Shown here: positions 4,601 through 63,121 of the stretch, one piece after another
Position numbering within the stretch: position 1 is the stretch's first letter
Layout of the letters: each line of letters opens with the position of its first letter
From: an uncultured Roseburia sp.
Lineage (GTDB): Bacteria > Bacillota > Clostridia > Lachnospirales > Lachnospiraceae
Direction: 5' to 3'
DNA length: 64,000 nt
Assembly: GCA_947089765.1 (NCBI GenBank)
Contig: CAMULM010000001.1
Span: forward strand, 139,756 to 203,755
Notes under the pieces: generated by a model
Databases searched by the model: none
What the model saw: only the letters and a program-made list of their open reading frames with translations
Told to the model about the DNA's origin: nothing
Position numbers and translations under genes: made by a program

Positions 4601-6836
4601 ACATACAGGGACAAAAAATGTAGATTATCCGTATGACCAGCAAAACTGTATTTTAAATACAACAGATATTATGATGAGGGAAATGATGTATTCCGTACCT
4701 GCAACTCAGGTTTGGGCAGGCATCAAAAACGCAGAAGATAAAGCGGTAAAACTTGACCTTGCCTTAAAAGCAATGGAAAAAACAATGACGCTGTTTTACC
4801 AGCATAAAGGATTAAGTGATAACGCGGGAACCGTAAGAGGAAATAACGCATGGCCGGCGCAGCACTTGAATATCCGTTATATGAGAATGTTTGCCGGAGC
4901 GTTTATGTATGCGTCAGGCAACCACATTGGCGTAGAATGGGGTTCCACATTATTAGCAAGCGCGCCAAACGACTGGTCAGGATTTGGCTGGGGCGTAGCG
5001 CATGAAATTGGGCATGACATCAATCAGGGCGCATATGCGGTTGCGGAAATCACAAACAATTACTTTGCGCAGCTATTGACAAAAGTTCCCGGAAAGACAA
5101 GATTCACATACAAAAATGTCTACGACAAAGTAACGTCAAATACAATCGGACGCTCTCCGAATGTAGCGACGCAGCTTGCATTGTACTGGCAGCTCCATAT
5201 TGCATATGACAATAATAAGGACGACAGACATATTTACGACAACTATGAAGATCAGTTCAATAACCTGTTCTTTGCAAGAGTGGACACTTATTCAAGGAAT
5301 CCAAAAATGGCTCCGCAGGAAGGATTAACGTTAGACGGAGGTTCAGAACAGAACATTATGCGTCTTGCATGCGCGGCGGCAAATAAAAATATTCTTCCTT
5401 TCTTTGTGCGCTGGGGTATGCAGCCAGATGAGAAAACAACTGCATATGCGGCAAAATATGGAGAGGCGGAAACGAAAGCGCTCTATTATGTCAATGACGA
5501 TGCAAGAGATTACCGCGTGGATCATCCAAATGAGGAAGGGACAATAAAAGATCAGGATGCCGTTACTGTAGCTACAGTAAATGCAGCCGGAAATCAGGCG
5601 GAAATCACGATTGCGACAGATCGCAGCGCAGAGCTTATGCTTGGCTATGAAATCAGCCGCAGTATGATTTCAAACGGTAAAAAATCCACTCAGGTGATTG
5701 GGTTTGCGCCGATTGACACAGCGGACTCTACCGTTTTTGTAGACTCCATTTCATCAATTAACAATCGGGTAATGGAATATGAAGTGCGCGCAGTGGATAA
5801 ATACTTGAACTATTCCAATGTAAAAACGGCTGGTTCTGTAAAGATTCAGACAGACGGCGTATTGAATAAATCCGAATGGACAGCAGAGACGACAATGACT
5901 TCGGCTGACGATACTGTAATCGAGCCGGACGGAGAAGATCCGGACAGCGGATATGAAGCGGAAGATCCGGCAGGCGTAGAAGCGAAAAAGGTCAACAGCA
6001 TTACAAGGATTTTAGACAATGACAGGACAGCGGCTGGAACTTATAACGGAGTAAGCGGCGGCGCCGCGTCAATTACCATAGATATGCGTAAGACAGAAGA
6101 AGTGACGGCATTAAAATATCAGGGTTCTGCAGTTGCTTCGGCGGCAGTTGAAGTCAGCCCAGATGGTGAGAATTGGACAAAAGTGAAAGAGAACGTTTCT
6201 CTTGCCGCAAATGCAGAGCAGACGGTATGGTTTGATTCCGTCAATGAAGAAGACCGCAAGAACTGGATTGGCACTTACGATGCGAAATATGTAAGGCTGA
6301 CGCTGTCGCAGGCAGGCAGTATTTCCATTCAGGAAATCGAAATCTGCGGCCCGACAGGGGATAATTTGGAATTTATGGCAACGGAAGAAGGCCAGCCGGC
6401 AATCGGCGTATTGAAGGAAGACTTTACATATGGCGAAGAAGCGGCGGACGTAATTCCGGCAGGCTCATTAATCTTTACCGGGACATATAAAGGAAATCCG
6501 GCATATAATATAGTTGCGCTCTATGATGCAAATGGCAATGTAATCGGGGAAAAAGATGGAAATGTCTCTGCGGAACAAATAATTTTGGCGGACGTTCCGG
6601 AACAAGGAAATCTGGGTGAAACCTCAGACGGAACTTGGGTATATTATGTAAGGCCGGATCAGTGGAATTTAGAAGCGATAAGGAACACAGGCTTCGTGCG
6701 TGGAGAATTATACCGTGTAGACAATGCCCTGACGTTAGAGGGCGAGCGTATTGTCAGTGATACAAAACTGCTTGAGATTCCTCAGGAATTGCCGGATATT
6801 ACGCTTCAAGGAGGTAAGTATGAAAAATTGGATTAA
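1605..6836 (+). CDS. Secreted multidomain M60-like (enhancin-type) zinc metallopeptidase with N-proximal type-I dockerin, FN3 repeats and a discoidin (F5/8-C)-like region
   Basis: Signal peptide MKRMVAMLLAGCLAFQ. Two calcium-binding dockerin loops (DVNQDGVIDQTDI, DLNQDGKVDMADL) at about 2050-2225. HEIGH zinc motif within GWGVAHEIGHDINQ at about 5001-5015. FN3-like blocks end in the GYEVYIS / GYMVYYK pattern. GGAGG RBS. Confidence 0.8.
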   Translation: MKRMVAMLLAGCLAFQTWIGNAKPVFGAQTASGSVDFGEAQAASESVDSGKAQSVLEVGVRSSAQFPFQGDVTVQIGRGSEVVESKDLKFEGSKASFAAARFEVSEGDYTVTVKSAQFADYTQDVKAQNGWKTKILISPSRIETGNEAAPGWIRVGDVNQDGVIDQTDIDGMMSKIREGSMEAAFDLNQDGKVDMADLQYIVQSIDEHRESTVEKLGIVQTIQQAEGATMEGNVNDFLNGTGALKLKPENANAQISAENPVGINFTLVEDTKKAVEIQGIVVHAPVTDEQGGISNEITEGEVIYTDAEGKETSVPFSAAAKPKQKKNRALFAANASNRAATISADIEADGSLVLDFGGQIAVKRVTIKITGTKKTEPLVNIAKVDFVNDMEKRIPAPQMDIPTLGVPQSVDKGLIVSWNPQKNVTGYEVYISGPVKNQEEHETQIVRVSNITHTISSINDKPLLNFEKYTIKARSVNGDWSSPWSNEVIGEPKPTKLPAAPDNVSATGGYRTIEVSWKDMDDANGYMVYYKKTKDADTEYRPVIEGFTQVKEGTGKLNATHYVIAGLEDEVEYSVYVVGWNDLGWGSPSLSASALTKLNVPPQLPNYKLLNTSNGEGAVSAHITAASYGGHGGAKMVGSALDTAEKSALGLVDNNYGSYWEKTDWDDGVAYPADNKGFTVTLDQDYKMNFITFASADEKAALQYARIGYWNTASTGKQNVGARLYRKLDSRNNPYYIIKLDQAITANKVNICLGRDSVRASMMVGEIHFHYYDSLEDDIMGLYTDEMHATLRADVTESVIQALEARLELVDEASGEKHPLYNELTLELKTAREILNSNLACAYEVENQITGSKDGHLGFGGLNSWQPVGKTVYAGESLLVYVGHNTKRTGDKASLQLVFTQQHAEAATLSKAVSLKVGRNEITVPQIVSKEFERGGQLYVAYTGNNANDKYAVRISGGSDIPVLSVYGKTQEQRMAAISAYVKELEQYVGTIEAGHAAKHTGTKNVDYPYDQQNCILNTTDIMMREMMYSVPATQVWAGIKNAEDKAVKLDLALKAMEKTMTLFYQHKGLSDNAGTVRGNNAWPAQHLNIRYMRMFAGAFMYASGNHIGVEWGSTLLASAPNDWSGFGWGVAHEIGHDINQGAYAVAEITNNYFAQLLTKVPGKTRFTYKNVYDKVTSNTIGRSPNVATQLALYWQLHIAYDNNKDDRHIYDNYEDQFNNLFFARVDTYSRNPKMAPQEGLTLDGGSEQNIMRLACAAANKNILPFFVRWGMQPDEKTTAYAAKYGEAETKALYYVNDDARDYRVDHPNEEGTIKDQDAVTVATVNAAGNQAEITIATDRSAELMLGYEISRSMISNGKKSTQVIGFAPIDTADSTVFVDSISSINNRVMEYEVRAVDKYLNYSNVKTAGSVKIQTDGVLNKSEWTAETTMTSADDTVIEPDGEDPDSGYEAEDPAGVEAKKVNSITRILDNDRTAAGTYNGVSGGAASITIDMRKTEEVTALKYQGSAVASAAVEVSPDGENWTKVKENVSLAANAEQTVWFDSVNEEDRKNWIGTYDAKYVRLTLSQAGSISIQEIEICGPTGDNLEFMATEEGQPAIGVLKEDFTYGEEAADVIPAGSLIFTGTYKGNPAYNIVALYDANGNVIGEKDGNVSAEQIILADVPEQGNLGETSDGTWVYYVRPDQWNLEAIRNTGFVRGELYRVDNALTLEGERIVSDTKLLEIPQELPDITLQGGKYEKLD

Positions 6837-10825: not shown

Positions 10826-10987
10826 AACTAATCCGGAATCGGCTGATCAAGCTGTTAAGCGTGCGCGCCTGCGCAGAAAGCTCTTTGAAAACTTCAGCGC
10901 TTTCTTTTGCAGATGCAGTATTTGTCTGCGCGACTTCGGAATTTTGAAGAAGTTCATGGACTTCAGAAGCTAAGGCAAACGCAGCCA
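10826..10987 (-). pseudogene. Remnant of a methyl-accepting chemotaxis protein C-terminus (truncated, about 55 codons)
   Basis: Minus-strand translation MAAFALASEVHELLQNSEVAQTNTASAKESAEVFKELSAQARTLNSLISRFRIS* parallels the C-terminus of the intact MCP at 8220-9926 ([38 protein letters not shown]). The frame stays open upstream, but the upstream sequence is not MCP-like. Confidence 0.5.
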
Positions 10988-11284
10988 TATATTCCTCGGC
11001 AGTGGAAGTATAGATTTTTGGAGATAAACGCTTTCTCTGTGGAGAAATTAGTTGAAATATTTCACTGAATTAGCGGGATAAGCATGTGAACAAATTCCTA
11101 ACGTTTGCTTGTGAAAGCAGAAAGAAAGCATCTACTCACACTCGATTATTAATATAGAGCAGGATTTCTTTTGTGTCTAATATTCTTGCTGAATGTAAGC
11201 GGATTATAAGCAGGAAAATCAGGGGAGAGGGAACGTTTGTTTTGCTGTTTGGCAATGTTCTTTTTAGAAATATATTGGATAAGA

Positions 11285-11312
11285 CATATCAGGGAATGTT
11301 CCCGCATACATT
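11285..11312 (+). promoter_or_regulatory. Candidate sigma-E-type sporulation promoter for spoIIID
   Basis: cATATc -14 nt- CATACATT matches the Bacillus/Clostridium sigma-E consensus (ATATT -14- CATACA-T). It is positioned about 30 nt upstream of the spoIIID start. Confidence 0.45.
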
Positions 11313-11341
11313 GTAAAAATAAGTATCTCAGGGGAATTTTT

Positions 11342-11596
11342 TTGAAAAGCTATATTGAGGAAAGAGCTATGGAGATAGCCAAATATATTATTGAGAACAA
11401 TGCGACAGTAAGGCAGACGGCGAACCAATTTGGGATAAGTAAAAGCACGGTACATAAAGACGTCACGGAACGCCTCCCGCAAATCAACCCGTCTCTAGCC
11501 CAAAATGCCAGAAAAGTCCTTGATGTAAATAAGTCGGAGCGTCATATCCGTGGCGGATTAGCGACGAGGGAAAAATATCTGCATCAGCGCATTTAG
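11342..11596 (+). CDS. spoIIID: Stage III sporulation protein D (SpoIIID), small HTH transcription factor
   Basis: LKSYIEERAMEIAKYIIENNATVRQTANQFGISKSTVHKDVTERLPQINP...ERHIRGG aligns along its length with B. subtilis SpoIIID (MHDYIKERTIKIGKYIVE...KSTVHKDLTERLPEINP). TTG start with an agggga RBS; the 11237 ATG would add a non-homologous N-terminus. Confidence 0.85.
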   Translation: MKSYIEERAMEIAKYIIENNATVRQTANQFGISKSTVHKDVTERLPQINPSLAQNARKVLDVNKSERHIRGGLATREKYLHQRI

Positions 11597-23426: not shown

Positions 23427-26400
23427 TTATTTTACCCTGATTTTGATTTTAGCCTTTTTGCCATTGTATGTCTTTACTGTAATGGTTGCTTGGCCTTTCT
23501 TCTTTGCTGTAACTTTTCCGGTTGGGGAAACAGTTGCGACAGACTTTTTATTAGAAGTAAAGGTGAGTTTGTTGCTTGCAGTGTTTTTCGGCAGTTTTAC
23601 TTTAATCTGGTAGGAAGCTCCCTTTTTCATTTTTTTCATTTTTTTAGATAATGTGATTTTTTTCGGGGCTTTCTTTACAGTCACCCGCATGGTGGCTTTC
23701 TTTCCGCCGGATTCTCTGGCAATTACCCATGCAGTTCCGGCTTTCTTTCCGGTAATCAAACCGTCTGCCGTAATGTTGATTTTTGAATTATTTGGCGTAA
23801 AGGTGACAGACTGATTTGTCGCATTTGCAGGGGCTAAAGTGAGATTAGCCTGATACGTCTCACCAACGCCGATTGTGATTTTGGAAACTGCAAATGAAAG
23901 TTCACTGACAGGGATAGTGTCCTGTTTTGGCGGCTGTGGATCTGGTTTCTGCTGCGCCGGCGGCAGTTCGGGTTCTGTCAGTTCAGCGCCATCGTCCGGT
24001 TTTTGCGTATCGTCCGGTTTTTGCGTATCGTCCGGTTTTTGCGTATCGTCTGGCTTTTGCGTGTCGTCTGGCTTTTGCGTGTCGTCCGGTTTTTGTGTGT
24101 CGTCTGGTTTTTGCGTATCGTCCGGCTTTTGCGTATCGTCTGGTTCTTGTGTGTCGTCCGGCTTTTGCGTATCGTCCGGTTCTTGTGTGTCGTCCGGATC
24201 TGGTTCTTCCGTGTCCGGATTAGGAGGAGTATCCTGTTTCGTGACTGTTACTGTAAAATTATTTGAAATTGCGGATTTCGAAAACCGTTTCTGATCTGTA
24301 ACCGATAATTTACAGTAGAGTGTGACTTCCCCTTCGGATTGTTTAAAATTCGTTTTCAAATTTTCAGGAGTTAAGATAATATAATTTAATCCTGACTTTA
24401 AATCCTGTTGGATTGTTTGATGCGCGACAAGGTGATTGTCCTCATCATAAAACTCTGCGGTCAGCATTGCGTTTGGCAAATCTTCTTCACAGGAGTAAAT
24501 GAGGTCTGCGGAAACGACCCCGTTAAGCATATTTTGTTCATTGCATTCCGCATCGGCAATTAATTCATGTATTTTAAATGGGTTTTCCCGTTCGGAGCTG
24601 GTAAAACGAAGTGAAACCTGACCGTTATCCAATTCCGCTTCTGCGCCGTCGATAAGAACTTCCGCTGTTTCAGGGGCAGTGATGGAGATTTCTTTCTCCT
24701 GATTGATGTCTAACTGGATATCCTGATTTTCAAGCCCCGCAATGTCAATTTCACGTTCCATGCCCGCGTCGTTAATAAGAGTGATATTCACGGAATCGTC
24801 CGGATCTGCGTTCTCACCGGATGCAAGAGTCAGGGAAACGTTATTCTGGGCATCATTTACAGTATTTACGGATAATGCGGCAGTTTCATCGCTTGCCGTT
24901 ACTTCAGCAAATACGTCTTCTGACGCCATAAAGAAGGTTACGTCCTGTTGTTTTGTTTCTTCTGAAGGAGCGTCTGGGCTTTCTTGGGCAACTGTATAAT
25001 TGCCGTCTGGCAGTACATAGCTTCGGATGCCGCTAAACGCATCTCCTTCCACTGTATTGAAAGGTTTCTGCTCGTAAGCGCCTTCAATTTCTTCAATGCC
25101 TTTGCCAGAGCCGTCTGTGACTGTCCCGGCTTCTTTATCAATCGAAACATACAGGGAATTATCTGCTGTTTCGGAATATAACGTCACGTCTGCCATGTTT
25201 GCCGCGATCGCCGTATAATCGACATAGGAAAGAGCTAAATCATAAGATCCATAAGAGAATTCCGTCATTTCTCTGTTGATTGTTAAAGTCTGAAATTCTT
25301 CCGGCGTATTGCAGTCATAGACTTCAATTTCAAAATCGCCGTTATCTGTCTGCGTCCATGAGACAGGGACTAAGGCGTGGCCGCTAAACGGAGAATAAAC
25401 TGCGATAACGACTGGCGTCGCTTCTTCGTCCATGTAAAGACCGCCGCTGTTTTGGAATGCAGTAATGCGTTCTTTTAATCCCTCAAAATCGTTCATATGC
25501 TGTATGATTTCGCCTCTGCATGAAGAAATTTCCGGCAGATATTGGGAAATCTGATATGCTTCAATTAATTTGGTAAGGTTTTTGGAAAAATCATCTTTCA
25601 CTCTGGACGGAGCTTGGATATCATATACATTTTTAATGGAAGATGCAAAGTTCTTCAAATCAAAAGAGCTGTTGTTATTGATGTTTTCATAAAATTCCAG
25701 CGTCGTGCTTGCCATGCCAAAACAAGAGCCGCCCCATCGTTTATTGATGGAATAATAATACGTTCCGGTGATAATGCTGTCTAATACATCGACATACCGT
25801 TGTCTTGGGATGCGGTAATCATAGTCATAGCCGAAAGAGAGGCGGCTGTTGTCAAACGAATAATGATCCTTTTGTTTCGTATAGAAGCGGTCTAACTGTT
25901 TCACTGGAAGATTGCTCCAAAAGCCGCCAAGAGCCGCCCATTGCTCCCCTTCGTCTTTTGCAGGAAGATAGAATAAGACAGCCTTACTGCATTCCGCAAA
26001 TGCGGATTCATTCATGTTCTGTGGGAATGCGCCTTTGAAATACACTTTTTCTAATGCGGCATTTCCTGCGAACGCATTTGCATCTATGTCAGACACGCCT
26101 TCCGGTATGTCAATCTTAGTTAGAGCCGTACAGCCTTTTAAGGCGTTGGAGTTTATGGAAGTTAGTCTGGCGGGCATCGTGACAGAAGTCAAAGCCGCGC
26201 AGTTTTCCAAAACTCCGTTAGAGAGAGCCGTAACTCCATTAGGAATTGTGACAGAAGTCATTCCCGTCATATCTTTCATTGCTCCGGAACCTATAGTAGC
26301 CACATTTGGCGGAATAATAAATGTTTTAAGCGAAGAACAGCCCTGAAGGGAATTTTCTCCTAATGTGGTAAGGGCGTCCGGTAATGTTAAAGCAGTCAGA

Positions 26401-28772
26401 GACGAGCAGCCGGAAAGGATTTCAGATGGGAACTCTGTAACCGGACTGTTTTTAAAATTCATTTCTTTAATGGAAGAACAGCCTTTAAATGCGCGTGAGC
26501 CTAACGATGTTACATTTTGTAAGCTCCATGCGCCTCTTAAAGAAGCATCGCCTGAAAAAGCATCTTCTCCAATATCCGCTATGCTTGAGAAAGTGAGAAA
26601 CACCAGCTTTCCACAGTCTGCAAAAGCAAACTTTCCAATTCTTGACGGTTTACTGTCGGTCGAGAGACGCAGAAGGCGTTTTGCCCCATAGAAGGAAAAG
26701 TCCCCGACTTCCTTAACAGAAGCTTCAACCGTCTGGATTTTATCTATGTACGGATACCATGGGGTCAAAGCCGATTCAGCAAAATCCGACAATACAAGGC
26801 TATCGCCCGTTAATGTCAGACGGTCATTAAAAGCTTCATATTTCCATGAAAAAGTCTCTGTCTGGTTTTCTATCACTTCCGTATCTTCAGGATTCCAGTC
26901 CGCAAACACGAAAGTCGGCCAATATTGGTTGTTTTTCCATTCTTCCGAATCTCTCAGGCGGTACAACAGCAGGTCGTTTGCGTTTGAATTTATGGCAAAT
27001 GAATTTGAATAACTGCCGATGGAGCCGTTTGCCTGCGGTTCGTTTCCGGCAAAGTAAATGGATTTTAGTTTGCTGTTATGGTTTATTGCATTGGCTTGCA
27101 GCACGGAAAGCGTTTGCGGCAGGTAGAGCTCTACTAGTTTCGGGACATAATAAAATGCGTAAGAGCCAACCGTTGCCACTGTTTCAGGAACGTGAAATTC
27201 TTTCTCTGTTTTGCCAAAAGGATAAAACATAAGTGTGGTGAAATCTGCATTATACAATACATTCTCCACTGCTTTTAGTTTGCTGTCCGCGTCCGGCGTA
27301 GTCAATACAGCCAGATTTGCGCAATTTTTAAATGAGCCGCTTGCGCCAAATTGGATGCTGCTGACATTTTTGCCGAATGAAACAGAAGTTAAGTTTTTAC
27401 ATTCTGCAAAAGCATAAGAATTTAAGGTTGTAACGCTGTCTGGTAAAGTTAAAGCAGTCAATGGGCAGCGATAAAACGCATAATTATCAACGAGAGCTGT
27501 TCCATCTGCAATCGCATAGTCTGTCACTGCTGTTGCAGACGGATAAGCGATTGCGCGGTATGGGGCGTTGTTTTTTATTTCATATAAAGCATGATCAATA
27601 ATTCGGAACTTGGCATTTCCGTCGGCAACGCGGATCGTTGTTAAAACGTCAGTGTTATTATTATCCACAATGCCATAAAGAACGCCGCTCCCAATGGTCG
27701 TTACGTTTCGCGGTATGGTTATCTCGGTCAGGCGTGTACATGCAAATGCCCCCGAGCCGATTGAAGTCAGGCTGTCCGGCAATGCAATGCCGTTTATGGA
27801 AGTGTCAAAAAACGCTTTGTCTCCAATGCTTGTTAATCCGCTTCCAAGGGTTATAGCAGATAGATTTCTACAGTAGCTAAAAGCGTCATTGCCAATAGAA
27901 GTTACGCTGTTTGGGATAGTAATGTTATTAAGTCTTTGGCAAAAGTAAAAAGCGCGTTCGCCTATTGTCTGCAGTCTGTTTCCAAGGTCAATCGAGTTTA
28001 ATTGGGAACAGTTTTCAAATGCGGATTGACCGATCGACGTTACATTTGTCAGAGGCGAGATAGTAGTCAGGTTATAGCAGCTAGAAAATGCGTTCTCCTT
28101 AATTTCTGTTACATTGGAGAAAGTAACAGTTCTTAAAAAACTGCCTCGAAATGCAGATGCTCCAATGAACGTCATGCTGTCTGGTAAAGCGATGTTCTTG
28201 AGATTGCTGTTATAAAACGCAGTTGATCCAATGGAAGTCAGCCCGCTTCTCGACAGATCTATAGAGTTTAAAGAGTTTGTTTCTCTAAACGCAGAACTGC
28301 CAATCGAAGTAAGCCCGCTGCCGCAGACAACAGTTTCCAAATCGTAACAGTTTTGGAACGCATTATCGCCGATCGAAGTGACACTGTCCGGCAAAGTAAC
28401 GTTTAAAACGCCTACGATTTGATAAAACGCATAATTGCCAATCGAGGTTACTCCATTGCCGATTTCAATAGTGGAAATGTGTGGCGCATATCCTGACCAC
28501 GGGGCAGAGTCGTATGAATAATTTGACATCTGCCCACTTCCGCTGATAGTCAGCTTGTAAGGAGGGACGTTTGCCAAATTCCAGTTTTCGGGAGGCATAG
28601 CCGTTAGTTTCCAAGTGAGCCCGTTTCCACAGGTTCCTTCGGTCGGGCCCGTTGGCGTTTCAATCGCATAGACCTTTTCGATGGAGAAAAGGGAAGTGGG
28701 GGTTAGTCCTAATACCAACAAAAAAGCCAGTAAAAGACTAACGGCAGGTTTCAACTTTTGTTTCATTTTCAT
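23427..28772 (-). CDS. Giant (1781 aa) secreted cell-surface protein: BspA-type leucine-rich repeats, central papain-like Cys/His region, (DTQKPD)n linker, C-terminal Big_2 Ig-like Lys-rich domains
   Basis: Signal peptide MKMKQKLKPAVSLLLAFLLVLG. Many approximately 23-aa LRR_5-type repeats (LTSIGSSAFRETNSLNSIDLS...). GGSCFGMA ... SGHALVP pair 115 residues apart. Hexapeptide tandem repeat. Big_2-like ATVSPTGKVTAKKKGQATITV. Confidence 0.8.
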   Translation of the reverse strand: MKMKQKLKPAVSLLLAFLLVLGLTPTSLFSIEKVYAIETPTGPTEGTCGNGLTWKLTAMPPENWNLANVPPYKLTISGSGQMSNYSYDSAPWSGYAPHISTIEIGNGVTSIGNYAFYQIVGVLNVTLPDSVTSIGDNAFQNCYDLETVVCGSGLTSIGSSAFRETNSLNSIDLSRSGLTSIGSTAFYNSNLKNIALPDSMTFIGASAFRGSFLRTVTFSNVTEIKENAFSSCYNLTTISPLTNVTSIGQSAFENCSQLNSIDLGNRLQTIGERAFYFCQRLNNITIPNSVTSIGNDAFSYCRNLSAITLGSGLTSIGDKAFFDTSINGIALPDSLTSIGSGAFACTRLTEITIPRNVTTIGSGVLYGIVDNNNTDVLTTIRVADGNAKFRIIDHALYEIKNNAPYRAIAYPSATAVTDYAIADGTALVDNYAFYRCPLTALTLPDSVTTLNSYAFAECKNLTSVSFGKNVSSIQFGASGSFKNCANLAVLTTPDADSKLKAVENVLYNADFTTLMFYPFGKTEKEFHVPETVATVGSYAFYYVPKLVELYLPQTLSVLQANAINHNSKLKSIYFAGNEPQANGSIGSYSNSFAINSNANDLLLYRLRDSEEWKNNQYWPTFVFADWNPEDTEVIENQTETFSWKYEAFNDRLTLTGDSLVLSDFAESALTPWYPYIDKIQTVEASVKEVGDFSFYGAKRLLRLSTDSKPSRIGKFAFADCGKLVFLTFSSIADIGEDAFSGDASLRGAWSLQNVTSLGSRAFKGCSSIKEMNFKNSPVTEFPSEILSGCSSLTALTLPDALTTLGENSLQGCSSLKTFIIPPNVATIGSGAMKDMTGMTSVTIPNGVTALSNGVLENCAALTSVTMPARLTSINSNALKGCTALTKIDIPEGVSDIDANAFAGNAALEKVYFKGAFPQNMNESAFAECSKAVLFYLPAKDEGEQWAALGGFWSNLPVKQLDRFYTKQKDHYSFDNSRLSFGYDYDYRIPRQRYVDVLDSIITGTYYYSINKRWGGSCFGMASTTLEFYENINNNSSFDLKNFASSIKNVYDIQAPSRVKDDFSKNLTKLIEAYQISQYLPEISSCRGEIIQHMNDFEGLKERITAFQNSGGLYMDEEATPVVIAVYSPFSGHALVPVSWTQTDNGDFEIEVYDCNTPEEFQTLTINREMTEFSYGSYDLALSYVDYTAIAANMADVTLYSETADNSLYVSIDKEAGTVTDGSGKGIEEIEGAYEQKPFNTVEGDAFSGIRSYVLPDGNYTVAQESPDAPSEETKQQDVTFFMASEDVFAEVTASDETAALSVNTVNDAQNNVSLTLASGENADPDDSVNITLINDAGMEREIDIAGLENQDIQLDINQEKEISITAPETAEVLIDGAEAELDNGQVSLRFTSSERENPFKIHELIADAECNEQNMLNGVVSADLIYSCEEDLPNAMLTAEFYDEDNHLVAHQTIQQDLKSGLNYIILTPENLKTNFKQSEGEVTLYCKLSVTDQKRFSKSAISNNFTVTVTKQDTPPNPDTEEPDPDDTQEPDDTQKPDDTQEPDDTQKPDDTQKPDDTQKPDDTQKPDDTQKPDDTQKPDDTQKPDDTQKPDDGAELTEPELPPAQQKPDPQPPKQDTIPVSELSFAVSKITIGVGETYQANLTLAPANATNQSVTFTPNNSKINITADGLITGKKAGTAWVIARESGGKKATMRVTVKKAPKKITLSKKMKKMKKGASYQIKVKLPKNTASNKLTFTSNKKSVATVSPTGKVTAKKKGQATITVKTYNGKKAKIKIRVK
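23988..24205. repeat. In-frame tandem repeat, about 12 copies of an 18-bp unit (cgtccggtttttgcgtat and variants) encoding (DTQ[K/E]PD)n in the LRR protein
   Basis: Directly visible head-to-tail 18-bp periodicity with t/c and g/a variants. It produces the spurious + strand ORFs 23875..24294, 23927..24223 and 24003..24266. Confidence 0.9.
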
Positions 28773-56449: not shown

Positions 56450-56480
56450 GAACAGCAAAATAAAAAACGGCAGGGCATAA
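56450..56480 (-). terminator. Rho-independent terminator ending the four-gene cassette (minus strand)
   Basis: Minus-strand cggcagggttatgccctgccg hairpin followed by ttttttatttt, 20 nt after the stop of the gene at 56499. Confidence 0.65.
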
Positions 56481-56498
56481 CCCTGCCGCCGCTGCCGT

Positions 56499-57638
56499 TT
56501 AGGTTTCTGAGGGAGGATTGTTTTGATCCTCTTTTTTGAGTTCGATTCCTGAAATTAATTTGTTATAGTCTATTTTTTTCTGGCTGCATTGTCTGGAAAT
56601 TTCATCTGCATGTTTTTGCGCTTCGACGGACTGGTTCTGCGCTTCTGCAAGCAGGCTGTAATAATTAGATTCTTCTTTGGCATAGGAATCTAAACTGCCT
56701 GTGTCGCTTACGCTTTTTAGCGTAAATAAGCAGGAAAGCTCTGCCGCATCGGCAGGTTCCGTTTGGGCAGGTTTTGAAGCGAGCGATTTTACAGCGTTTG
56801 GAATTTGGGTCTGGAAAGTGTTCCAGTATGTATTTAACTGGTCAAGGTTTGCCTGTAGTTGTTCCGCTTCTTCTGTTTCATTTTTGTTGATAAGTTCCTG
56901 AAGTTTTAACTGGTATTGGTTTTGCTGCTGGCTGCCAATCCGTTTAAACTGCTGTAATTGTTCATTTAATGCTTTTTCGGCGGCGGACTGTTGGGTTTCT
57001 AAAAGCAGGATTTCCTGATTCAACGATTTGATTCTTTCGCTTCTGTCTTTTCGTTCTTCCGGCAGTTCCTGTCCGTTTGCATCTTTTATTTTCGAATCAA
57101 TAAGAGCTGGGGATACGGAAGCCGCCATCATATCAAGGACTCTGGCAAGGCCTTCCGGCGTCCCATGGTTGGTCGCCCGCACATCGACGTGGTATTTGGC
57201 GGAATTGTCCGTACTTCTAGTGTTGGAGCTATGGGAGCTGACGCTTCCGCTGATATTGACTTTTGCAATTCCAAGATTAATAGAGCCGGAAGCAGCCGCG
57301 CTTAAATCGGTTGCTTTTTCACTTTTTTCGCTTTCCTTGACTTCCATATCAAATAAGATATTCACTTCATCGACCTGAAGGTTTGGAATTGGGACAATTG
57401 CAAGCATTGGCACGTCGATTTTCATTTCGTCTTGATTTGTGGTGCCGTCTTCGTTATAAGATTTTTTCTCAAATTGGAACGAGGCTTTTCGTGTATTCCC
57501 TTTTTCGTCAAAGCCTACTTTATTGATAAATGACGCTGTGCTGTCTGCAAGCTGCATACTTGCATCTGCAGCCGCGCGTAAAGGCCCGCCGATAAGGTTT
57601 CCCATATCTAGGCCTGAAAACTGATCTCCGATCGCCAT
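56499..57638 (-). CDS. Uncharacterized protein B of the cassette: N-terminal approximately 180-aa domain (paralogous to gene 59734-60594) with Ser/Thr-rich loop, then approximately 200-aa Gln/Glu-rich coiled coil
   Basis: Start MAIGDQFSGLDMGNLIGGPL preceded by AAGGAGG at an 8-nt spacing (the upstream ATG at 57659 would place this RBS inside the coding sequence). Domain blocks align with gene A (see findings). Ser-rich ISGSVSSHSSNTRSTDNS. Heptad-like EQLQ... tail. Confidence 0.6.
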   Translation of the reverse strand: MAIGDQFSGLDMGNLIGGPLRAAADASMQLADSTASFINKVGFDEKGNTRKASFQFEKKSYNEDGTTNQDEMKIDVPMLAIVPIPNLQVDEVNILFDMEVKESEKSEKATDLSAAASGSINLGIAKVNISGSVSSHSSNTRSTDNSAKYHVDVRATNHGTPEGLARVLDMMAASVSPALIDSKIKDANGQELPEERKDRSERIKSLNQEILLLETQQSAAEKALNEQLQQFKRIGSQQQNQYQLKLQELINKNETEEAEQLQANLDQLNTYWNTFQTQIPNAVKSLASKPAQTEPADAAELSCLFTLKSVSDTGSLDSYAKEESNYYSLLAEAQNQSVEAQKHADEISRQCSQKKIDYNKLISGIELKKEDQNNPPSET

Positions 57639-57651
57639 AAGCGCTACCTCC

Positions 57652-59367
57652 TTATTCATTTACTGGTAAAAATGTTTCGATTAGTTCATCTGCTGAAAAT
57701 TCTGCTAAATAATGAATGGTATTTTTGAAAATTTCAGATATCGCGCCAGTTTCCTGATACAGATCTGTTTGGGCAAAAGCCATTCCGTTTATCAGTACAT
57801 TCGAGAGATTTCCTGTAGAAAGGTCTAGTTGGATTAGAGGAATATCTCCTTGCTGGAAACTGTGATGAAGGGCTTCTTTTAACACATTTTCCTGTATATT
57901 TTGTATAAAGAACGTTGTTTTTAGATTTTCCTGAATGAGATTGCAGTAGTCATCAGCAATCCTATCTTTATCTTCGTAATCCGCATAAATTGAAAGCGCC
58001 CGCGCAAGTTCTGAAGTCCGGACAGGAACTAGACGCAGGAGAGGATTTTGCCGGATTAAAGAAGTCAAAAAATCAGAGAGTTCTTCAATGTGTTCCATAC
58101 AATACTGGCTTGCAGTGAAAAAACCATTTGTAAAATCTGGATAAAAAAATTGAACATTATCATAACAAGTTCCATCTTTGCCGTCAAATGTGAAATATGA
58201 TACGGCGTCGTCCCCAAAAGCGTTCTGACGTGAACAAAGACTGTCCCGAATCATTGTGGCATTTAGGCTGGCAGAAGTGATGACGTTTATCTGAAAGGCG
58301 CATTCGGCATCGAGGACGATGGGGCCGTTTTCTGTGGGCATGATATTGTCCTGATGAAGATCGGTTACGCCTGCAAGTTTTGCCGCATAGGCTAAGACCC
58401 CCATTTTTTTGTAGTAACTGTGTAATTCCGTTTCCGTAAAATCCGGCTTTTTCGTGACAAGTTCTTCCATTCCGTAGTTTGCATTGTCAAAAATAACCAT
58501 ACACGGCAGATGGCATTCATCGGGAAGCCGTTCGTTTAAATAGGTGATGAAGCTGTTTGGCCCTGTAAATAAATAATCCGCTTTCATATTCCGCGGCTTA
58601 TATGCCCATTGGCTGGAATTTCGTTCCGCAAACAGTACCTGTCTGCCAAGCATATGTGGGTCAGATCCGGAAACGCGGATATCATATCCTTCTAAATCAA
58701 CGCTCACAGCGCCTAATAGGAAGTTTACGGTATTTTCAAAACGTGTATGTACAAGCGTATAACGGGTTTCAGACGGTTCTTCCGCATATAGATTTATGCT
58801 GACGTCCATAATAGCGGAGGCATATAAATCAGAGAGCTTTTGCGGAGAGTTTAAAAGCGGCCGGATCATATGCGTTTGTCCGATGTACTTTTGGATAAGC
58901 GGAAGGGGATTTACTTCCATAATGTCCCAAAATGACAATTCGGCTTCCGCAAATGGAGCAATTCCCTCATTTATTCTAACGGGAACTGCCATTTGATTTA
59001 AAATAGGAAGCAGTTCCATAAACTGATGAAACAGTTCACCGGAATGTATGGCTTCCATACAGCAGATAACGCCGGAGCAGGACTGTGGTTCGGAAAGGGT
59101 GGATTCCCGTAGTTTGGCAAGTTCATCTGAAATGTCCATGTTTAACCGTTTGGAAAGCGAAGCTGCCGCCTGATCAAACAAATCTTCTGTATTCTGAGAA
59201 GTTGTAATCATTGCATCTCCTTTCTGGGTTTTGGCATTTTTCAGTTTCATTTTTGGGTCTGGCAAAGATACGCTGTATTGCGCTTCGTCTGCCAATATAG
59301 GGCGGTAGTCTGCCAGATAATAATAATATATGGGAAGCTTTTCTCCATTATGTGTTTGTACCGTCAT
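57652..59367 (-). CDS. Protein-kinase-like fold enzyme related to the dehydratase (DUF4135) domain of class II lanthipeptide synthetases (LanM), standalone, no LanC cyclase domain
   Basis: AYKPRN (Lys) ... TDLHQDN (D-x-H-x-x-N catalytic loop, about 58347-58362) ... VLDAE, with the second Asp exactly 17 residues after the first, as in LctM D242/D259. Start at MTVQTHNG (ATG 59365-59367) chosen for its GGAGG RBS at 9 nt. The ORF could extend to a GTG at 59487, overlapping the upstream gene. Confidence 0.6.
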   Translation of the reverse strand: MTVQTHNGEKLPIYYYYLADYRPILADEAQYSVSLPDPKMKLKNAKTQKGDAMITTSQNTEDLFDQAAASLSKRLNMDISDELAKLRESTLSEPQSCSGVICCMEAIHSGELFHQFMELLPILNQMAVPVRINEGIAPFAEAELSFWDIMEVNPLPLIQKYIGQTHMIRPLLNSPQKLSDLYASAIMDVSINLYAEEPSETRYTLVHTRFENTVNFLLGAVSVDLEGYDIRVSGSDPHMLGRQVLFAERNSSQWAYKPRNMKADYLFTGPNSFITYLNERLPDECHLPCMVIFDNANYGMEELVTKKPDFTETELHSYYKKMGVLAYAAKLAGVTDLHQDNIMPTENGPIVLDAECAFQINVITSASLNATMIRDSLCSRQNAFGDDAVSYFTFDGKDGTCYDNVQFFYPDFTNGFFTASQYCMEHIEELSDFLTSLIRQNPLLRLVPVRTSELARALSIYADYEDKDRIADDYCNLIQENLKTTFFIQNIQENVLKEALHHSFQQGDIPLIQLDLSTGNLSNVLINGMAFAQTDLYQETGAISEIFKNTIHYLAEFSADELIETFLPVNE

Positions 59368-59471
59368 TTTTTTTAAACCTCCGTTTGACATAAAATGTGT
59401 TTTTAATCCCATGAAATAGGAGTGCATAAGGTGTAAATTCAGCCATTTTTTCAAAGTATCCATTTTAAAGC

Positions 59472-59744
59472 CTACAATTCTAACCACATCGGTTTTCGGG
59501 GAAAGCCGATATGGTAGGTGGTCTGCTCCATTGTCAGTTCATGTTCCCCGATGGCGTACCTGCCAATAGAAATATCCTTGCCGATAATGACCCCTTTTGG
59601 GCTTTCGTTTAGACATCGGTTTAACAAGGCCGCCTGCTGTTGTTTGGATTCCTCAGAAAGCGGGTGGTTCGGGTTTATGCTGCCAAGTGTAATTGTTTTA
59701 ATAAACCTTATATCTTCATAATGTGTTTTGCAGTCAGGATTCAT
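59472..59744 (-). CDS. Small (90 aa) soluble protein of unknown function, second gene of the cassette
   Basis: AAGGAGG RBS 8 nt upstream of the ATG. The start overlaps the stop of the upstream gene by 11 nt. Sequence MNPDCKTHYEDIRFIKTITLGSINPNHPLSEESKQQQAALLNRCLNESPKG... has no recognisable family. Confidence 0.5.
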   Translation of the reverse strand: MNPDCKTHYEDIRFIKTITLGSINPNHPLSEESKQQQAALLNRCLNESPKGVIIGKDISIGRYAIGEHELTMEQTTYHIGFPRKPMWLEL

Positions 59745-60594
59745 TTGGGGCGCCTCCTTTTTTGAAGGATTCCACTTTATTTTCTAGCATCGCTTCTTTC
59801 ACGCTTATGAGTTCTGTTAAGATTGTTTGTCTTAATTCTTCATATTCCTTTGGGTCATATGGAGCGTTAGAGAACTCTTTAGACAGGCATTCCGGCTCTA
59901 GTTCTTCTTGTAAAGATTCTCTTGTTTCCATATATTCTGTGATTTCCTGATGCAGTTTATGTAACGCCGCTTCTTGCTGTCTGAGGGAACGTTGGAGTAA
60001 AAAATCATCTTTTTCAGAATTTTGCACAATTCCGTCACTTGAAATGGGTGAAGCATCGATTTGCTTTGCGACAGGATTTGCGTTTAGAATGTCTAAAATC
60101 CGCATATAGCCTTCCGTTTCGTCTACTGCTTTTAAATCGATTTTATAGTTGACAACGGGCTGTGCGGCGGATTTTTCCCGCTTCAGGGAACTAATTTTTC
60201 CAACAGTGAGCGGGGCGTTTTGCTCGTTTTCGGAAATGTGGACTTCCGTTGAAAATTCTAGCGTGGCATTTTTTATTTTTAAGTTTGGGATTTTTATAAT
60301 TGATAACAGAGGCACTTCGATTTGGACGCTTTCCATATAGGGTTCATTGTGTTCTGCCGGGTGTAAGCGTTCATATGCCAGATTTAATTTTTTCAGGTAC
60401 AGTGTTTCTTCGCCGTTTCTAAGTTTCACTGTGCCCATGCTTTTGATTTCGTCAAGGATTGCCAGTGAAAGCCTTGCATTTGAGGAGGCAATGGCGTCAA
60501 TGGGCGCGTAGACTAGGTCATTAAGCGGAAGAAATTGCTTTCCGCTTGTTATTTTATCTTGATTGGACTGTTCCTTTTGTTCTGTTTCCTTCAT
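59734..60594 (-). CDS. Uncharacterized protein A of the cassette (287 aa): N-terminal approximately 180-aa domain paralogous to gene 56499-57638 plus helical acidic C-terminal tail
   Basis: Start MKETEQKEQ preceded by GGAGGGG 5 nt upstream (the ORF track start at 60651 lacks an RBS). Blocks LVYAPIDAIASSNARLSLAILDEI, IEVPLLSIIKIPNLKIKNATLEFSTEV and KIDLKAVDETEGYMRILDIL match B. Confidence 0.6.
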   Translation of the reverse strand: MKETEQKEQSNQDKITSGKQFLPLNDLVYAPIDAIASSNARLSLAILDEIKSMGTVKLRNGEETLYLKKLNLAYERLHPAEHNEPYMESVQIEVPLLSIIKIPNLKIKNATLEFSTEVHISENEQNAPLTVGKISSLKREKSAAQPVVNYKIDLKAVDETEGYMRILDILNANPVAKQIDASPISSDGIVQNSEKDDFLLQRSLRQQEAALHKLHQEITEYMETRESLQEELEPECLSKEFSNAPYDPKEYEELRQTILTELISVKEAMLENKVESFKKGGAPNES

Positions 60595-60703: not shown

Positions 60704-61492
60704 CTAGTCTTTATTTTTCAGTTCGACTGTATCCGCCCAGAACCTTTTTGGGATATTTTGAATTTGGAGTTTTGGATTTTTCCGCGCTTCTATGGCAATC
60801 GTTTCAAAAAAAGCAAGCCAGAGATTTTTTAAGCGTGTCTCATCTGAGGATAAATCCTCTGTAAGTTCCATCGGAAAAGATGCAGCGTCAGTGATGAAAT
60901 AACCTTTGCCCGACGGGTGGGCGGCTGCAATCCGGCGCGTGGCATCGTAGATGATAAAATTCTCTAATGGGAGACGGTCGGTAAAGTGCTCCGCCAAAAT
61001 TGGCAGGACATAATTTTTGGCATGAATCTGTGAAAATAAAATTCCGGTTTTTAATTCTGCAAAACGAAGAAATTCTAACAGATGGTGGGCTTCATTCAGT
61101 GTTTGGCGGCGCAGTTCAAAAATGCAGGCGATACAGGGTTCGCCTAAATAGTCTAAAACTTTTGCGCCAGCCGGAAGCGTAAGCGCCATAACGACAGTCT
61201 GGTAAATGGCATTTGCTTTATCCATAGCCAATGCGCGGCAGTTTCCGTTTGCCAATGCGCTGCTGCAAATTGTTTCATAGAAGTGGGCGCCAAGACGTTC
61301 TGTCAGGGTACGCGCCACTTTCCGGCTTTTTTCAAAATCGGTTTTTACCGGAATATATTCTGAAAAAAGCGTAAGCGTTCCGCTTTGGTCGGAGGAAAGC
61401 TGTATATTTTTGTGCCCATAGCGGGACGCCCATGCATCATAGATGCCTGTTAAAATTCCGTCAATACTGTCTTCACATTGAAATACATACAT
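60704..61492 (-). CDS. DUF4130/TIGR03915-family protein (putative DNA-metabolism/UDG-like partner of the radical SAM DNA repair protein)
   Basis: Start MYVFQCEDSIDGILTGIYDAW with a GGAGGCGG RBS (the listed ORF start at 61507 is a TTG whose following codons are that RBS). This family invariably neighbours the TIGR03916 radical SAM gene. Assignment from recalled family features. Confidence 0.6.
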   Translation of the reverse strand: MYVFQCEDSIDGILTGIYDAWASRYGHKNIQLSSDQSGTLTLFSEYIPVKTDFEKSRKVARTLTERLGAHFYETICSSALANGNCRALAMDKANAIYQTVVMALTLPAGAKVLDYLGEPCIACIFELRRQTLNEAHHLLEFLRFAELKTGILFSQIHAKNYVLPILAEHFTDRLPLENFIIYDATRRIAAAHPSGKGYFITDAASFPMELTEDLSSDETRLKNLWLAFFETIAIEARKNPKLQIQNIPKRFWADTVELKNKD

Positions 61493-62852
61493 GTTTGCCG
61501 CCTCCAAATGAAACGTCGTCGAATAGGGAAAGCTGCCGGTAGCCTTCTTCCCGCAGTTCTTTTGGGATCTGCGTTTTGTCGGAGAGCAGGTTTCGGCAGA
61601 TATAGTCCTCGTCCAGCTTGGTCGGATACATCATATGGCCGGAACAGGTGATAAAATATAAGGCGCGCTTTAGGACGACGCCGATTTTTTTTAGGTCGCA
61701 AAAATCAAGCGTAGAGCCGCGGCGGGCAGCTACAATGCGTTTGGCGGATTTTGCGCCTATGCCCGGGACGCGGAGTAAGGTTCTATAGTCGGCAGTCTGG
61801 ATTTCGATTGGAAAAATCTCTAAATGGCGAAGCGCCCAGTCACATTTCGGGTCCAGATAGACGTTGAAATTCGGGCGGTCTTCGGAGAGAAGCTCGTCTA
61901 CGGTAAAATGGTAGTAACGTAAAAGCCAATCCGCCTGATAAAGCCTATGTTCCCGCAGGAGAGGAGGGCCGCCGGAAAGGACGGGAAGGTTTGGATTTTG
62001 GCTGACATTGACGAACGCGGAATAAAAGACGCGTTTTAAGTCAAAGTTTTGATAAAGACCTTCTGCAACGCTCATAATTTGATAATCGTTTTCAGGCGTG
62101 GCTCCGATGATCATCTGTGTGCTTTGTCCGGCCGGCGTAAATCTGGGGGCGTTGCGGTACAGCATAAGTTCATTTTTGTTCTGGGCAATGCTGTTTTGGA
62201 TTTGGCGCATGGGTCTTAGGATTGTGCGGCGGGATTTACAGGGCGCAAGCTCTTTTAAGGCTCTGTGGGTGGGCAATTCTAAATTCACGCTCATGCGGTC
62301 TGCAAGAAATCCCGCTTTTTCAATTAAGAGAGGGTCAGCGCCGGGGATTGCCTTCACATGGATATAGCCTTGAAAGCGGTAGAAGGAACGCAGGCGGCAG
62401 ACAACTTGGTAGATGAGATCCATGGTGTAATTTGGGGACTTGATAATGCCGGAACTTAAAAATAACCCTTCAATGTAGTTGCGGCGGTAAAATTCTATAG
62501 TAAGCGCGCAGATTTCTTCCGGCGTAAAAGTGGCGCGGGGAATGTCGTTTTCGCAATTATTCTGGCAGTAGGAGCAGTTAAAAATACATTCATTGGTAAG
62601 TAGAATTTTCAGCAGTGAGACACAGCGGCCATCTGCGGAAAAGGAATGGCAGATCCCGCAGGATTTTGTATTGCCGATTCCCATGCCGTCGCCGCGTCTG
62701 TCAACGCCGCTGGAAGTGCATGCAACGTCATATTTTGCGGCGTCTGCCAGAATGGTGAGTTTTTCCATAATCGTGGGGGACAGGTGTGTGGCAGGAGAGC
62801 TTTTTTGTAAAATGGGGTCTGGGATTAAGGTGATATTGGCAGAGTTCTTCAT
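61473..62852 (-). CDS. Putative DNA modification/repair radical SAM protein (TIGR03916-like) with C-terminal helix-hairpin-helix
   Basis: Radical SAM CxxxCxxC (NECIFNCSYCQN). N-terminal KLTILADAAKYDVACTSSG. HhH LLRVPGIGAKSAKRIVAARR. AAGGAG RBS before the ATG at 62852. Overlaps the downstream gene by 20 nt. Confidence 0.75.
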   Translation of the reverse strand: MKNSANITLIPDPILQKSSPATHLSPTIMEKLTILADAAKYDVACTSSGVDRRGDGMGIGNTKSCGICHSFSADGRCVSLLKILLTNECIFNCSYCQNNCENDIPRATFTPEEICALTIEFYRRNYIEGLFLSSGIIKSPNYTMDLIYQVVCRLRSFYRFQGYIHVKAIPGADPLLIEKAGFLADRMSVNLELPTHRALKELAPCKSRRTILRPMRQIQNSIAQNKNELMLYRNAPRFTPAGQSTQMIIGATPENDYQIMSVAEGLYQNFDLKRVFYSAFVNVSQNPNLPVLSGGPPLLREHRLYQADWLLRYYHFTVDELLSEDRPNFNVYLDPKCDWALRHLEIFPIEIQTADYRTLLRVPGIGAKSAKRIVAARRGSTLDFCDLKKIGVVLKRALYFITCSGHMMYPTKLDEDYICRNLLSDKTQIPKELREEGYRQLSLFDDVSFGGGKHVCISM

Positions 62853-63121
62853 AGCAATGCTCCTTACTTGCAAACAAATGTTCTTGATAATGTATTTTAT
62901 CATGTCATTATTCAAATTGCAAGAGAAAATCGAATATTTGTTCTGAAAATTTTTGGAATAATGAAGTCTTTACATTCTCCTTAAAAGGGGAGATGAAATA
63001 GCAGGGAGGCGGATATGTTGACGCGGTCTTTTGCCTTTTGTATAATGATGCCAGAGTAGGGACGGAATGGGCTGATGATGGCAAAAACCGGATTTGTCGG
63101 AGCGGAAAAGGAGAATATAAA

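Follow-up and report, generated by a model that had tools for sequence, protein, structure and literature searches.

A DUF2589 paralog pair in an uncultured Roseburia belongs to a widespread four-protein module that in most relatives neighbors cell-wall hydrolase genes

Results

We analyzed a stretch of 64,000 nucleotides (nt) of DNA from an uncultured Roseburia sp., referred to here as the window, in which four closely spaced minus-strand genes, A, S1, K, and B, form one unit. Genes A and B encode paralogous proteins of the family DUF2589, S1 a small partner protein, and K a protein in which an N-terminus resembling a further small operon protein, S2, precedes a LanM-type kinase/dehydratase domain (Table 1). 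The genes overlap or lie 8-13 nt apart, and the operon is limited by a 110-nt leader and by an intrinsic terminator that sits 9 nt past the stop codon of B and is followed by the rplM(-rpsI) promoter, TTGACA-17-TATACT. Across other genomes, plasmids, and phages, the usual module consists of A, S2, B, and S1, and we found it recurrently beside genes for leaderless cell-wall hydrolases.

A and B are paralogous members of DUF2589

The paralogy of A and B, which an initial annotation of the window had claimed, was confirmed by BLASTP with 25% identity over 234 columns (E = 7e-13), an alignment that pairs the three blocks named there; all of the peptides quoted for these blocks were found in the translations of the two minus-strand open reading frames (ORFs). 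The shared domain had been called novel, the only wrong element of that observation, as both proteins match the catalogued Pfam family DUF2589 (PF11655), which bears out a half-remembered Pfam domain of unknown function that the annotation had mentioned. Both matches span nearly the full length of the 154-position model and exceed its gathering score of 23 bits, with 139.6 bits for B (E = 1.4e-40; model positions 2-152, corresponding to residues 19-179 of the long ORF) and 62.9 bits for A (E = 5.9e-17; model positions 1-153).

More than 1,136 homologs were obtained for B, and its domain alone retrieved 1,812 clusters at 50% identity, 768 of them with an E-value of 1e-10 or better. Most DUF2589 clusters are 180-240 amino acids (aa) long, i.e., they consist of the domain only, and among the longer representatives that we checked for domain fusions none was informative. 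For A, 35 homologs were found, the best one outside this species being only 46% identical. Judged from these sequences, DUF2589 falls into two types, of which the B-type is highly conserved and the A-type evolves fast. This split, the S1 and S2 partners, and the hydrolase link described below were not found in the literature that we searched: a search for PF11655 returned no mention, and sequence, structure-database, and literature searches yielded neither an assigned function nor a solved structure for DUF2589. PADLOC and PHROGs searches gave no match for any operon protein, and S1 had no match in Pfam, NCBIfam, PHROG, or PADLOC.

Behind the domain, B carries the long coiled-coil tail that the annotation had described, and AlphaFold2 (AF2) models residues 194-363 as long helices (194-252, 255-288, and 327-363) with block means of the predicted local distance difference test (pLDDT) mostly at 84-95. 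This tail of ~190 aa is a minority feature in the family: 21 of the 150 best representatives exceed 330 aa, about one in seven having a long tail like that of B. It is found mainly in Lachnospiraceae-type DUF2589 proteins and is absent from the ~200-aa viral forms, and the tails of Vibrio and deltaproteobacterial ORFs are shorter and non-homologous to it. The full-length AF2 model of B, built on a 147-sequence alignment, was confident for the tail and poor for the domain, with pLDDT below 50 over residues 96-160, while the A domain was predicted as helix 24-51, seven strands, and helix 162-172 at a mean pLDDT of 64. Foldseek found no relative of the B model in the PDB, and sequence searches of the PDB with B and with the family profile returned coiled-coil noise only (E > 0.1).

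The module neighbors hydrolases of five families

We compared gene neighborhoods in 80 genomic loci with B orthologs, mostly from Lachnospiraceae but also from Hominibacterium, Lacrimispora, Clostridium boliviensis, and others, and in a viral set of 57 IMG/VR contigs. Over the genomic loci, the pattern was an Amidase_2 and/or GH24 lysozyme gene, followed by A-S2-B-S1, a STAS gene, in some cases a C58-like gene, and a sensor gene with dCache/HAMP/PP2C/HATPase_c_2 domains. S1 was present in 76 of these loci, the amidase in 56, and the STAS gene in 55. S1 usually follows directly after B, and it also occurs in Vibrio, on a deltaproteobacterial plasmid, and in viral contigs L094 and L110. A hydrolase gene lay at most 2.5 kb from B in 54 of the 80 genomic and 36 of the 57 viral loci, where the counts are totals from a jackhmmer survey whose family labels drifted, and the family identities were taken from Pfam.

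Five hydrolase families, assigned by Pfam or PHROGs, were found beside the module. The Lachnospiraceae loci encode Amidase_2+Phage_lysozyme fusions, which are the long "amidases", and GH24 alone; Burkholderia shows the order B-A-GH24; and on the deltaproteobacterial plasmid the order A-B-S1 is followed ~2 kb downstream by a PF11860 muramidase. In viral contig L094, a GH108+PG_binding_3 gene precedes A, B, and S1, with overlapping stop and start codons that couple it translationally to A. In 36 of the 57 IMG/VR contigs, A (~164 aa) and B (~201 aa) are accompanied nearly always by a PG_binding_1 endolysin ~1.5 kb downstream, which in L098 lies in the same transcription unit as A and B. As these contigs carry RecT and RecE, they are real phages. 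Non-homologous enzymes beside one conserved partner constitute the mosaic that is typical of lysis cassettes. Moreover, the pairing of one conserved B with interchangeable, non-homologous hydrolases argues for a generic function directed at the membrane or the wall rather than for the role of a specific chaperone or inhibitor.

We found no hydrophobic transmembrane or signal segment in the 56 amidase ORFs, the 15 lysozyme ORFs, or any A, B, S1, or S2 ORF, the last four having no 15-residue window with a mean Kyte-Doolittle value of at least 2.0. The Lachnospiraceae core cluster likewise contains no conserved transmembrane ORF, a sporadic one occurring in 10 of the 80 loci. Holins are small proteins with transmembrane helices; since A, B, S1, and S2 have none, the module stands in the place of a holin but is not one. 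As leaderless wall hydrolases need a breach in the membrane and these clusters lack a holin, a membrane-permeabilizing, holin-like role of A and B is favored.

Further genes recur around the module. In the Lachnospiraceae clusters, a ~250-aa protein that weakly matches Peptidase_C58 (YopT-like) recurs between the STAS gene and the PP2C/kinase sensor, as does a ~360-aa GNAT-like protein in 29 of the 80 loci. Twenty-six of the 80 loci, L048 among them, carry a tyrosine recombinase (Phage_integrase plus a SAM-like N-terminal domain) ~4 kb upstream of B, and the upstream region of L066 contains a perfect 15-nt inverted repeat with arms 158 nt apart; these may represent an invertible (phase-variable) switch or the border of a mobile element. 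Two to three proteins of 124-133 aa, paralogous to one another and unassigned in function, surround the A-B pair in phage contigs and lie in the same transcription unit as the endolysin; one of these flanking paralogs, a 123-aa ORF in L095, matches phrog_30535 (unknown function). On the Vibrio tubiashii plasmid pFP31 (L089), a 512-aa gene annotated as "peptidoglycan-binding protein" lies ~1.2 kb from A-B-S1; as its product has no Pfam match at 1e-3, it was left out of the hydrolase count.

Some B orthologs were found in unusual places. Those in eight contigs binned as Anaeroplasmataceae/Mollicutes, Gastranaerophilales, Muribaculum, and Treponema (L018, L019, L035, L037, L056, L057, L074, and L088; 48-53% identity) reflect either horizontal transfer of the whole cluster or mis-binned Lachnospiraceae contigs. 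B-type DUF2589 genes with ~43% identity in giant-virus metagenome-assembled genome (GVMAG) contigs of IMG/VR (L122, L123, L131, L133, and L139) may stem from contamination or may truly be carried by large viruses.

The Ser/Thr-rich segment is a conserved core of B-type proteins

The annotation had drawn attention to a Ser/Thr-rich loop in B and regarded it as a possible target of a Ser/Thr kinase or dehydratase. The stretch was indeed found at S113-S146, with 11 Ser and 2 Thr in 34 residues, and it is conserved: 14 residues, G131, S132, V133, S134, H136, T140, R141, S142, and D144-Y149, are invariant in 18 orthologs of 52-70% identity. Far from being a loose loop, the stretch consists of an amphipathic beta-hairpin and, behind it, the beginning of the conserved polar motif GSVSSH..NTRSSDNSAKYHV. 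In an alignment of the segment that covers Lachnospiraceae, Vibrio, the deltaproteobacterial plasmid, Burkholderia, Fulvitalea, and many viral contigs, the hairpin sequence varies (...ATLDTEIKAGWGPVSVDVKIHGSV... in phage contigs, ...SAAASGSINLGIAKVNISGSV... in B of the window) yet is always amphipathic with a Gly/aromatic/Pro tip, and the polar motif is nearly identical across all aligned groups. The beta-periodic hydrophobic moments of the two hairpin strands reach 0.82 and 0.65, whereas the domain background averages 0.32, and the moment exceeds 95% of a segment's own shuffles in 103 of 104 distinct family segments. AF2 placed strands at residues 115-121 and 126-134 of B with pLDDT below 50, being unconfident exactly at the hairpin segment despite the conservation of its residues.

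The segment falls within the PF11655 model, and we used the hairpin and motif to define the B-type subfamily of DUF2589. B has the B-type motif, G-S-[VI]-S-x-H-x(2,5)-T-R-x-[ST]-D-x-S-A-K-Y, after its amphipathic hairpin, and 78 of 136 full-length cluster representatives match [TSQ][RK]x[ST]Dx[STR]AK[YF] (the TRxSDxSAKY core). The motif is absent from A, which keeps only the remnant R..SD..Y. The segment down to TRSSDNSAKY is kept in 76 of the 80 genomic loci, in Proteobacteria, and in phage contigs, none of which has K, and sister operons with and without K show the same pattern with the same conserved residues. Because the motif is retained from Lachnospiraceae to Vibrio, the deltaproteobacterial plasmid, and phages, whose examined loci lack K, the segment did not evolve as a K substrate. 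Hence, of the earlier proposal the conserved Ser/Thr-rich segment stands, while being a modification target does not account for its existence, and we are confident that the segment belongs to the family core of B-type proteins and is no K-specific substrate.

K is a rare LanM-type accessory joined to S2

The middle gene had been taken for a kinase-fold protein, and K does contain a LanM-type kinase/dehydratase domain with intact catalytic motifs. It matches DUF4135 (PF13575) with E = 2.3e-25, over positions 48-183 only of the 378-position model. Searching the PDB with phmmer retrieved the LanM enzymes LicM2 (1.7e-8) and CylM (1.2e-5), and K is also related to plasmid LanM enzymes at 21-31% identity. 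Its core aligns with residues 246-382 of CylM (PDB 5DZT) and 190-324 of LicM2 (PDB 6ST5), with which it shares the kinase core and the motifs Asp-x-His, YKP(K/R), D-x-H-x-x-N, and D-x-E; GSDPH, YKPR, TDLHQDN, and LDAE thereby match the positions of the LanM catalytic residues Asp/His, Lys, Asp-His-Asn, and Asp. These four motifs, R477, and T483 are invariant in four K-family sequences. The spacing of R477 and T483 is that of what we take to be the Arg/Thr phosphate-elimination pair of LanM (R506/T512 in CylM); around this pair, K aligns only weakly with LicM2 and with a Bacillus LanM, and the register is not the same in the two alignments.

K differs from LanM in four respects: no LanC-like cyclase domain was found in it, it scores 68 bits against TIGR03897 where the cut-off is 304, the operon contains no precursor peptide gene (LanA) and no room for one between or around its genes, and its N-terminus is S2. 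From its sequence, K would work like a LanM synthetase and yet is none, lacking the cyclase, the family score, and the precursor peptide. Its substrate, if any, would be a folded protein or something else rather than a leader-bearing peptide.

S2 is a small (~80 aa), fast-evolving operon protein. Residues 4-60 of K share 40% identity with the free 83-aa S2 of locus L005 (BLASTP E = 1e-12), and the K N-terminus aligns with six free S2 proteins and the fused L007 protein. In the window and in L007, S2 is fused to K, and in L004 and L012 it has an ORF of its own directly ahead of K, such that the order is A-S1-S2-K-B in every K locus that extends far enough (the window, L007/L008, L004, and L012). 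The closest operons without K (L005, L009-L011, and L013; B ~70% identical) are arranged A-S1-S2-B. K is rare: a word-index search of 5.8 billion proteins yielded 3 homologs, a metagenome scan found further relatives in the same organism only, and a scan of viral contigs found none. Taken together, these comparisons point to K as a recent, rare accessory that is probably tethered to the A/B module via S2.

These findings bear on the idea that K modifies a module protein. In its strong form, the B loop exists as the K substrate and B is a protein-sized, lanthipeptide-like substrate; in a weaker form, K regulates A, B, or S1 in this lineage by phosphorylating or dehydrating some of their Ser/Thr residues. 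The LanM kinase motifs with the plausible R477/T483 elimination pair, the position of K immediately upstream of B and fused or adjacent to S2 in all K loci, and the ~13 Ser/Thr among 34 residues of B, several of them invariant, all favor it, as does the activity of excised LanM dehydratase domains without the cyclase domain (PMC10676384). A dehydrazole enzyme was dropped as a precedent for a stand-alone DUF4135 enzyme, as it is fused to a cyclase domain (PMC10676384). Against the idea stand the retention of the segment in genomic, proteobacterial, and phage loci that all lack K, the absence of any K-specific change in it, the rarity of K, its missing LanC domain, and the lack of space for a precursor peptide; furthermore, a motif with His, Arg, Asp, Lys, and Tyr resembles a structural or functional site more than a flexible acceptor loop. 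Even in its weaker form, we consider this modification rather unlikely.

Gene starts and neighboring genes

The starts of the operon genes could be assigned from their context. B starts with the ATG at 57638 (MAIGDQ), preceded by TAAGGAGG; the longest ORF opens at 57659, and the closest database protein, P0001, likewise has 379 aa. A starts with the ATG at 60594 (MKETEQ) behind a ribosome-binding site (RBS), GGAGGGG, and S1 has the strong RBS AAGGAGG and a start that overlaps the stop codon of A. For K, an RBS-preceded ATG at 59367 was considered and rejected, the true start being MDTLKKW at 59463; P0156, 99% identical to K, has 603 aa. Directly upstream of A, on the same strand, lies a conserved pair of TIGR03916 and TIGR03915/DUF4130 genes, the former being a radical-SAM "DNA modification/repair" protein with HhH motifs; in other loci, this pair is unlinked to DUF2589. 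The window also encodes two large surface-type proteins, one of 1,743 aa with dockerin/fn3/Peptidase_M60/F5_F8 domains and one of 1,781 aa with BspA-type leucine-rich repeats and a Big_2 domain.

Table 1. Features of the operon and of compared loci (window coordinates unless a locus is given).
Feature	Position	Strand	Remarks
Gene A, A-type DUF2589	59734-60594	-	286 aa; domain ~residues 23-172 (nt 60079-60528); acidic helical tail of ~90 aa
Gene S1, 90-aa partner protein	59472-59744	-	motif GSINPNHPLS...GRY.GEHELT; no family match
Gene K, S2-like N-terminus and LanM-type DUF4135 kinase/dehydratase domain	57652-59463	-	603 aa
S2-like N-terminal domain of K (residues ~1-60)	59284-59463	-	BLASTP and alignment with free S2
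Kinase core of K (residues 256-403)	58255-58698	-	GSDPH, YKPR, TDLHQDN, LDAE
Gene B, B-type DUF2589	56499-57638	-	379 aa; domain residues 1-185 (nt 57084-57638); helical tail
Ser/Thr-rich stretch of B (residues 113-146)	57201-57302	-	amphipathic beta-hairpin and start of conserved polar motif
Conserved B-type motif GSVSSHSSNTRSTDNSAKYHV (B residues 131-151)	57186-57248	-	ortholog alignment
Helical, coiled-coil-like tail of B (residues 194-363)	56550-57059	-	AF2
Intrinsic terminator closing the A-S1-K-B operon	56466-56490	-	11-bp stem with 7 GC pairs, then T run
TIGR03916 and TIGR03915/DUF4130 pair	60704-62915	-	
1,743-aa surface-type protein	1605-6836	+	
1,781-aa surface-type protein	23427-28772	-	
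Free S2 ORFs	L004:4485-4718, L012:4603-4863, L005:7725-7976		
Flanking paralogs in phage contigs	L098:8354-9138 and 10966-11367; L111:13678-14442; L116:3131-3505		
123-aa flanking paralog	L095:8949-9326		phrog_30535
Extra genes between STAS gene and sensor	L001:9869-10621, L071:11756-12838		
Tyrosine recombinase	L048:6623-7447		
Inverted repeat	L066:4334-4348 / 4507-4521		
512-aa "peptidoglycan-binding protein"	L089:10128-11666		plasmid pFP31

Discussion

From the neighborhoods, a functional coupling of the module to cell-wall lysis appears likely. With somewhat less assurance, we lean toward the reading that A and B are paralogous subunits of a widespread, uncharacterized four-protein module that is lysis-linked and membrane-acting, of which the window holds a variant with a tethered K. 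We hypothesize that the module would act from the cell interior on the cytoplasmic membrane, where B would oligomerize and insert its hairpin as gasdermin- or aerolysin-type pore formers do, and that this insertion would open the wall to the hydrolases. An amphipathic hairpin with a hydrophobic tip and Ser/Thr-rich flanks is the pattern of pore formers that start out soluble and act through beta-hairpins; a pore of this kind is a mechanism that we put forward tentatively and with more doubt than belief. A and the small proteins S1 and S2 may serve as co-subunits or regulators, the coiled-coil tail of B as an oligomerization or hold-off element, and the STAS/PP2C/kinase sensor as the trigger in most lineages. 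In the window variant, the neighboring hydrolase and the STAS/PP2C-kinase regulators would have been lost, with an S2-fused LanM-type domain present instead, and K, docked via its S2 domain on the A/B complex, could exert control by phosphorylating or dehydrating a module protein. The full chain, in which A and B are a holin substitute without transmembrane helices that opens the membrane by its hairpin and is controlled here by a protein-directed LanM-type dehydratase docked via S2, strikes us as a long shot.

Several observations weigh against a lysis-linked, membrane-acting module. In 26 of the 80 genomic loci, about a dozen of them short contigs, no hydrolase turned up at a distance of 4 kb or less from B. 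As many members of the genomic set (80 loci) and of the viral set (57 contigs) are related to each other, the counts do not represent independent events. The window operon and the A-S1-S2-B subclade have no hydrolase or STAS gene within 10 kb, and the link to lysis therefore holds there by homology only. In phage contigs, a candidate holin (phrog_9987, 4e-5) and Rz-like spanins (~1e-3) lie a few kilobases away; accordingly, A and B cannot be the sole permeabilizer there. The amphipathic hairpin could be no more than one edge of a beta-sandwich in a soluble protein, structural modeling gave weak models and no fold relatives, and the open literature on DUF2589 contains two incidental mentions only, with no experimental datum for any member.

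The module could also be viewed as an anti-phage, abortive-infection, or other mobile conflict system, in which an A/B pore and the hydrolase kill the infected cell and the sensors or K act as triggers. Its spread is consistent with this, being patchy across phyla, with ~50% identity between Lachnospiraceae and Proteobacteria, occurrence on plasmids and viral or prophage contigs, a variable chromosomal position, the tyrosine recombinase that 26 of the 80 loci have ~4 kb upstream, and, in L002, a nearby eCIS_core protein and integrase; its architecture moreover resembles bacterial gasdermin systems. However, no PADLOC-DB v2 model matches A, B, S1, or K (none better than E = 0.01), no nuclease, NTPase, or protease typical of defense systems is consistently linked, and on the phage contigs the pair and the endolysin of the phage itself belong to one transcription unit, a better fit to phage lysis than to host defense. 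We therefore regard a role in defense as improbable. A role of DUF2589 unrelated to lysis, as a phage-derived structural, scaffold, or stress protein whose hydrolase neighbors are an inherited ancestral arrangement, would fit the small paralogous and possibly structural proteins (phrog_30535) that flank the phage pair, the window subclade without a hydrolase neighbor, and the relatedness of the counted loci, but it is very unlikely, as five non-homologous hydrolase families beside the pair in at least five distant lineages cannot be explained by inheritance of a single arrangement.

A module that is linked to lysis and acts on membranes would find its closest counterpart in the holin-endolysin cassettes of phages and phage-like elements, including secretion systems that use them. 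The A/B pair likewise adjoins leaderless murein hydrolases of interchangeable families, whereas its chromosomal clusters have a STAS/PP2C/anti-sigma-type kinase sensor in place of phage timing elements; a keyword search of the literature on holin-less lysis cassettes returned nothing relevant. With the gasdermins, including bacterial ones, and the aerolysin family, B shares the amphipathic hairpin, the Gly-aromatic-Pro tip, the Ser/Thr-rich flanks, and the nature of a leaderless cytosolic protein, a likeness in pattern only, as no similarity in sequence or fold to B was found.

DUF2589 is a large family (~1,800 clusters at 50% identity) of bacteria, plasmids, and phages that is essentially absent from the literature, and the window represents a rare variant, an S2-DUF4135 fusion, of a widespread, uncharacterized module. 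Should a protein prove to be the target of K, lanthipeptide-type chemistry would reach beyond peptides to folded proteins, and K would be the first protein-directed LanM-type dehydratase. Even if the link to lysis fails, the domain is now filed as DUF2589 and its Ser-rich "loop" is recognized as a conserved core rather than a modification tract. The neighborhood data give DUF2589 its first testable role, that of a partner of leaderless cell-wall hydrolases in holin-less clusters, and its carriers include many Lachnospiraceae, mostly gut-derived genomes, in which regulated autolysis and protein release are poorly understood.

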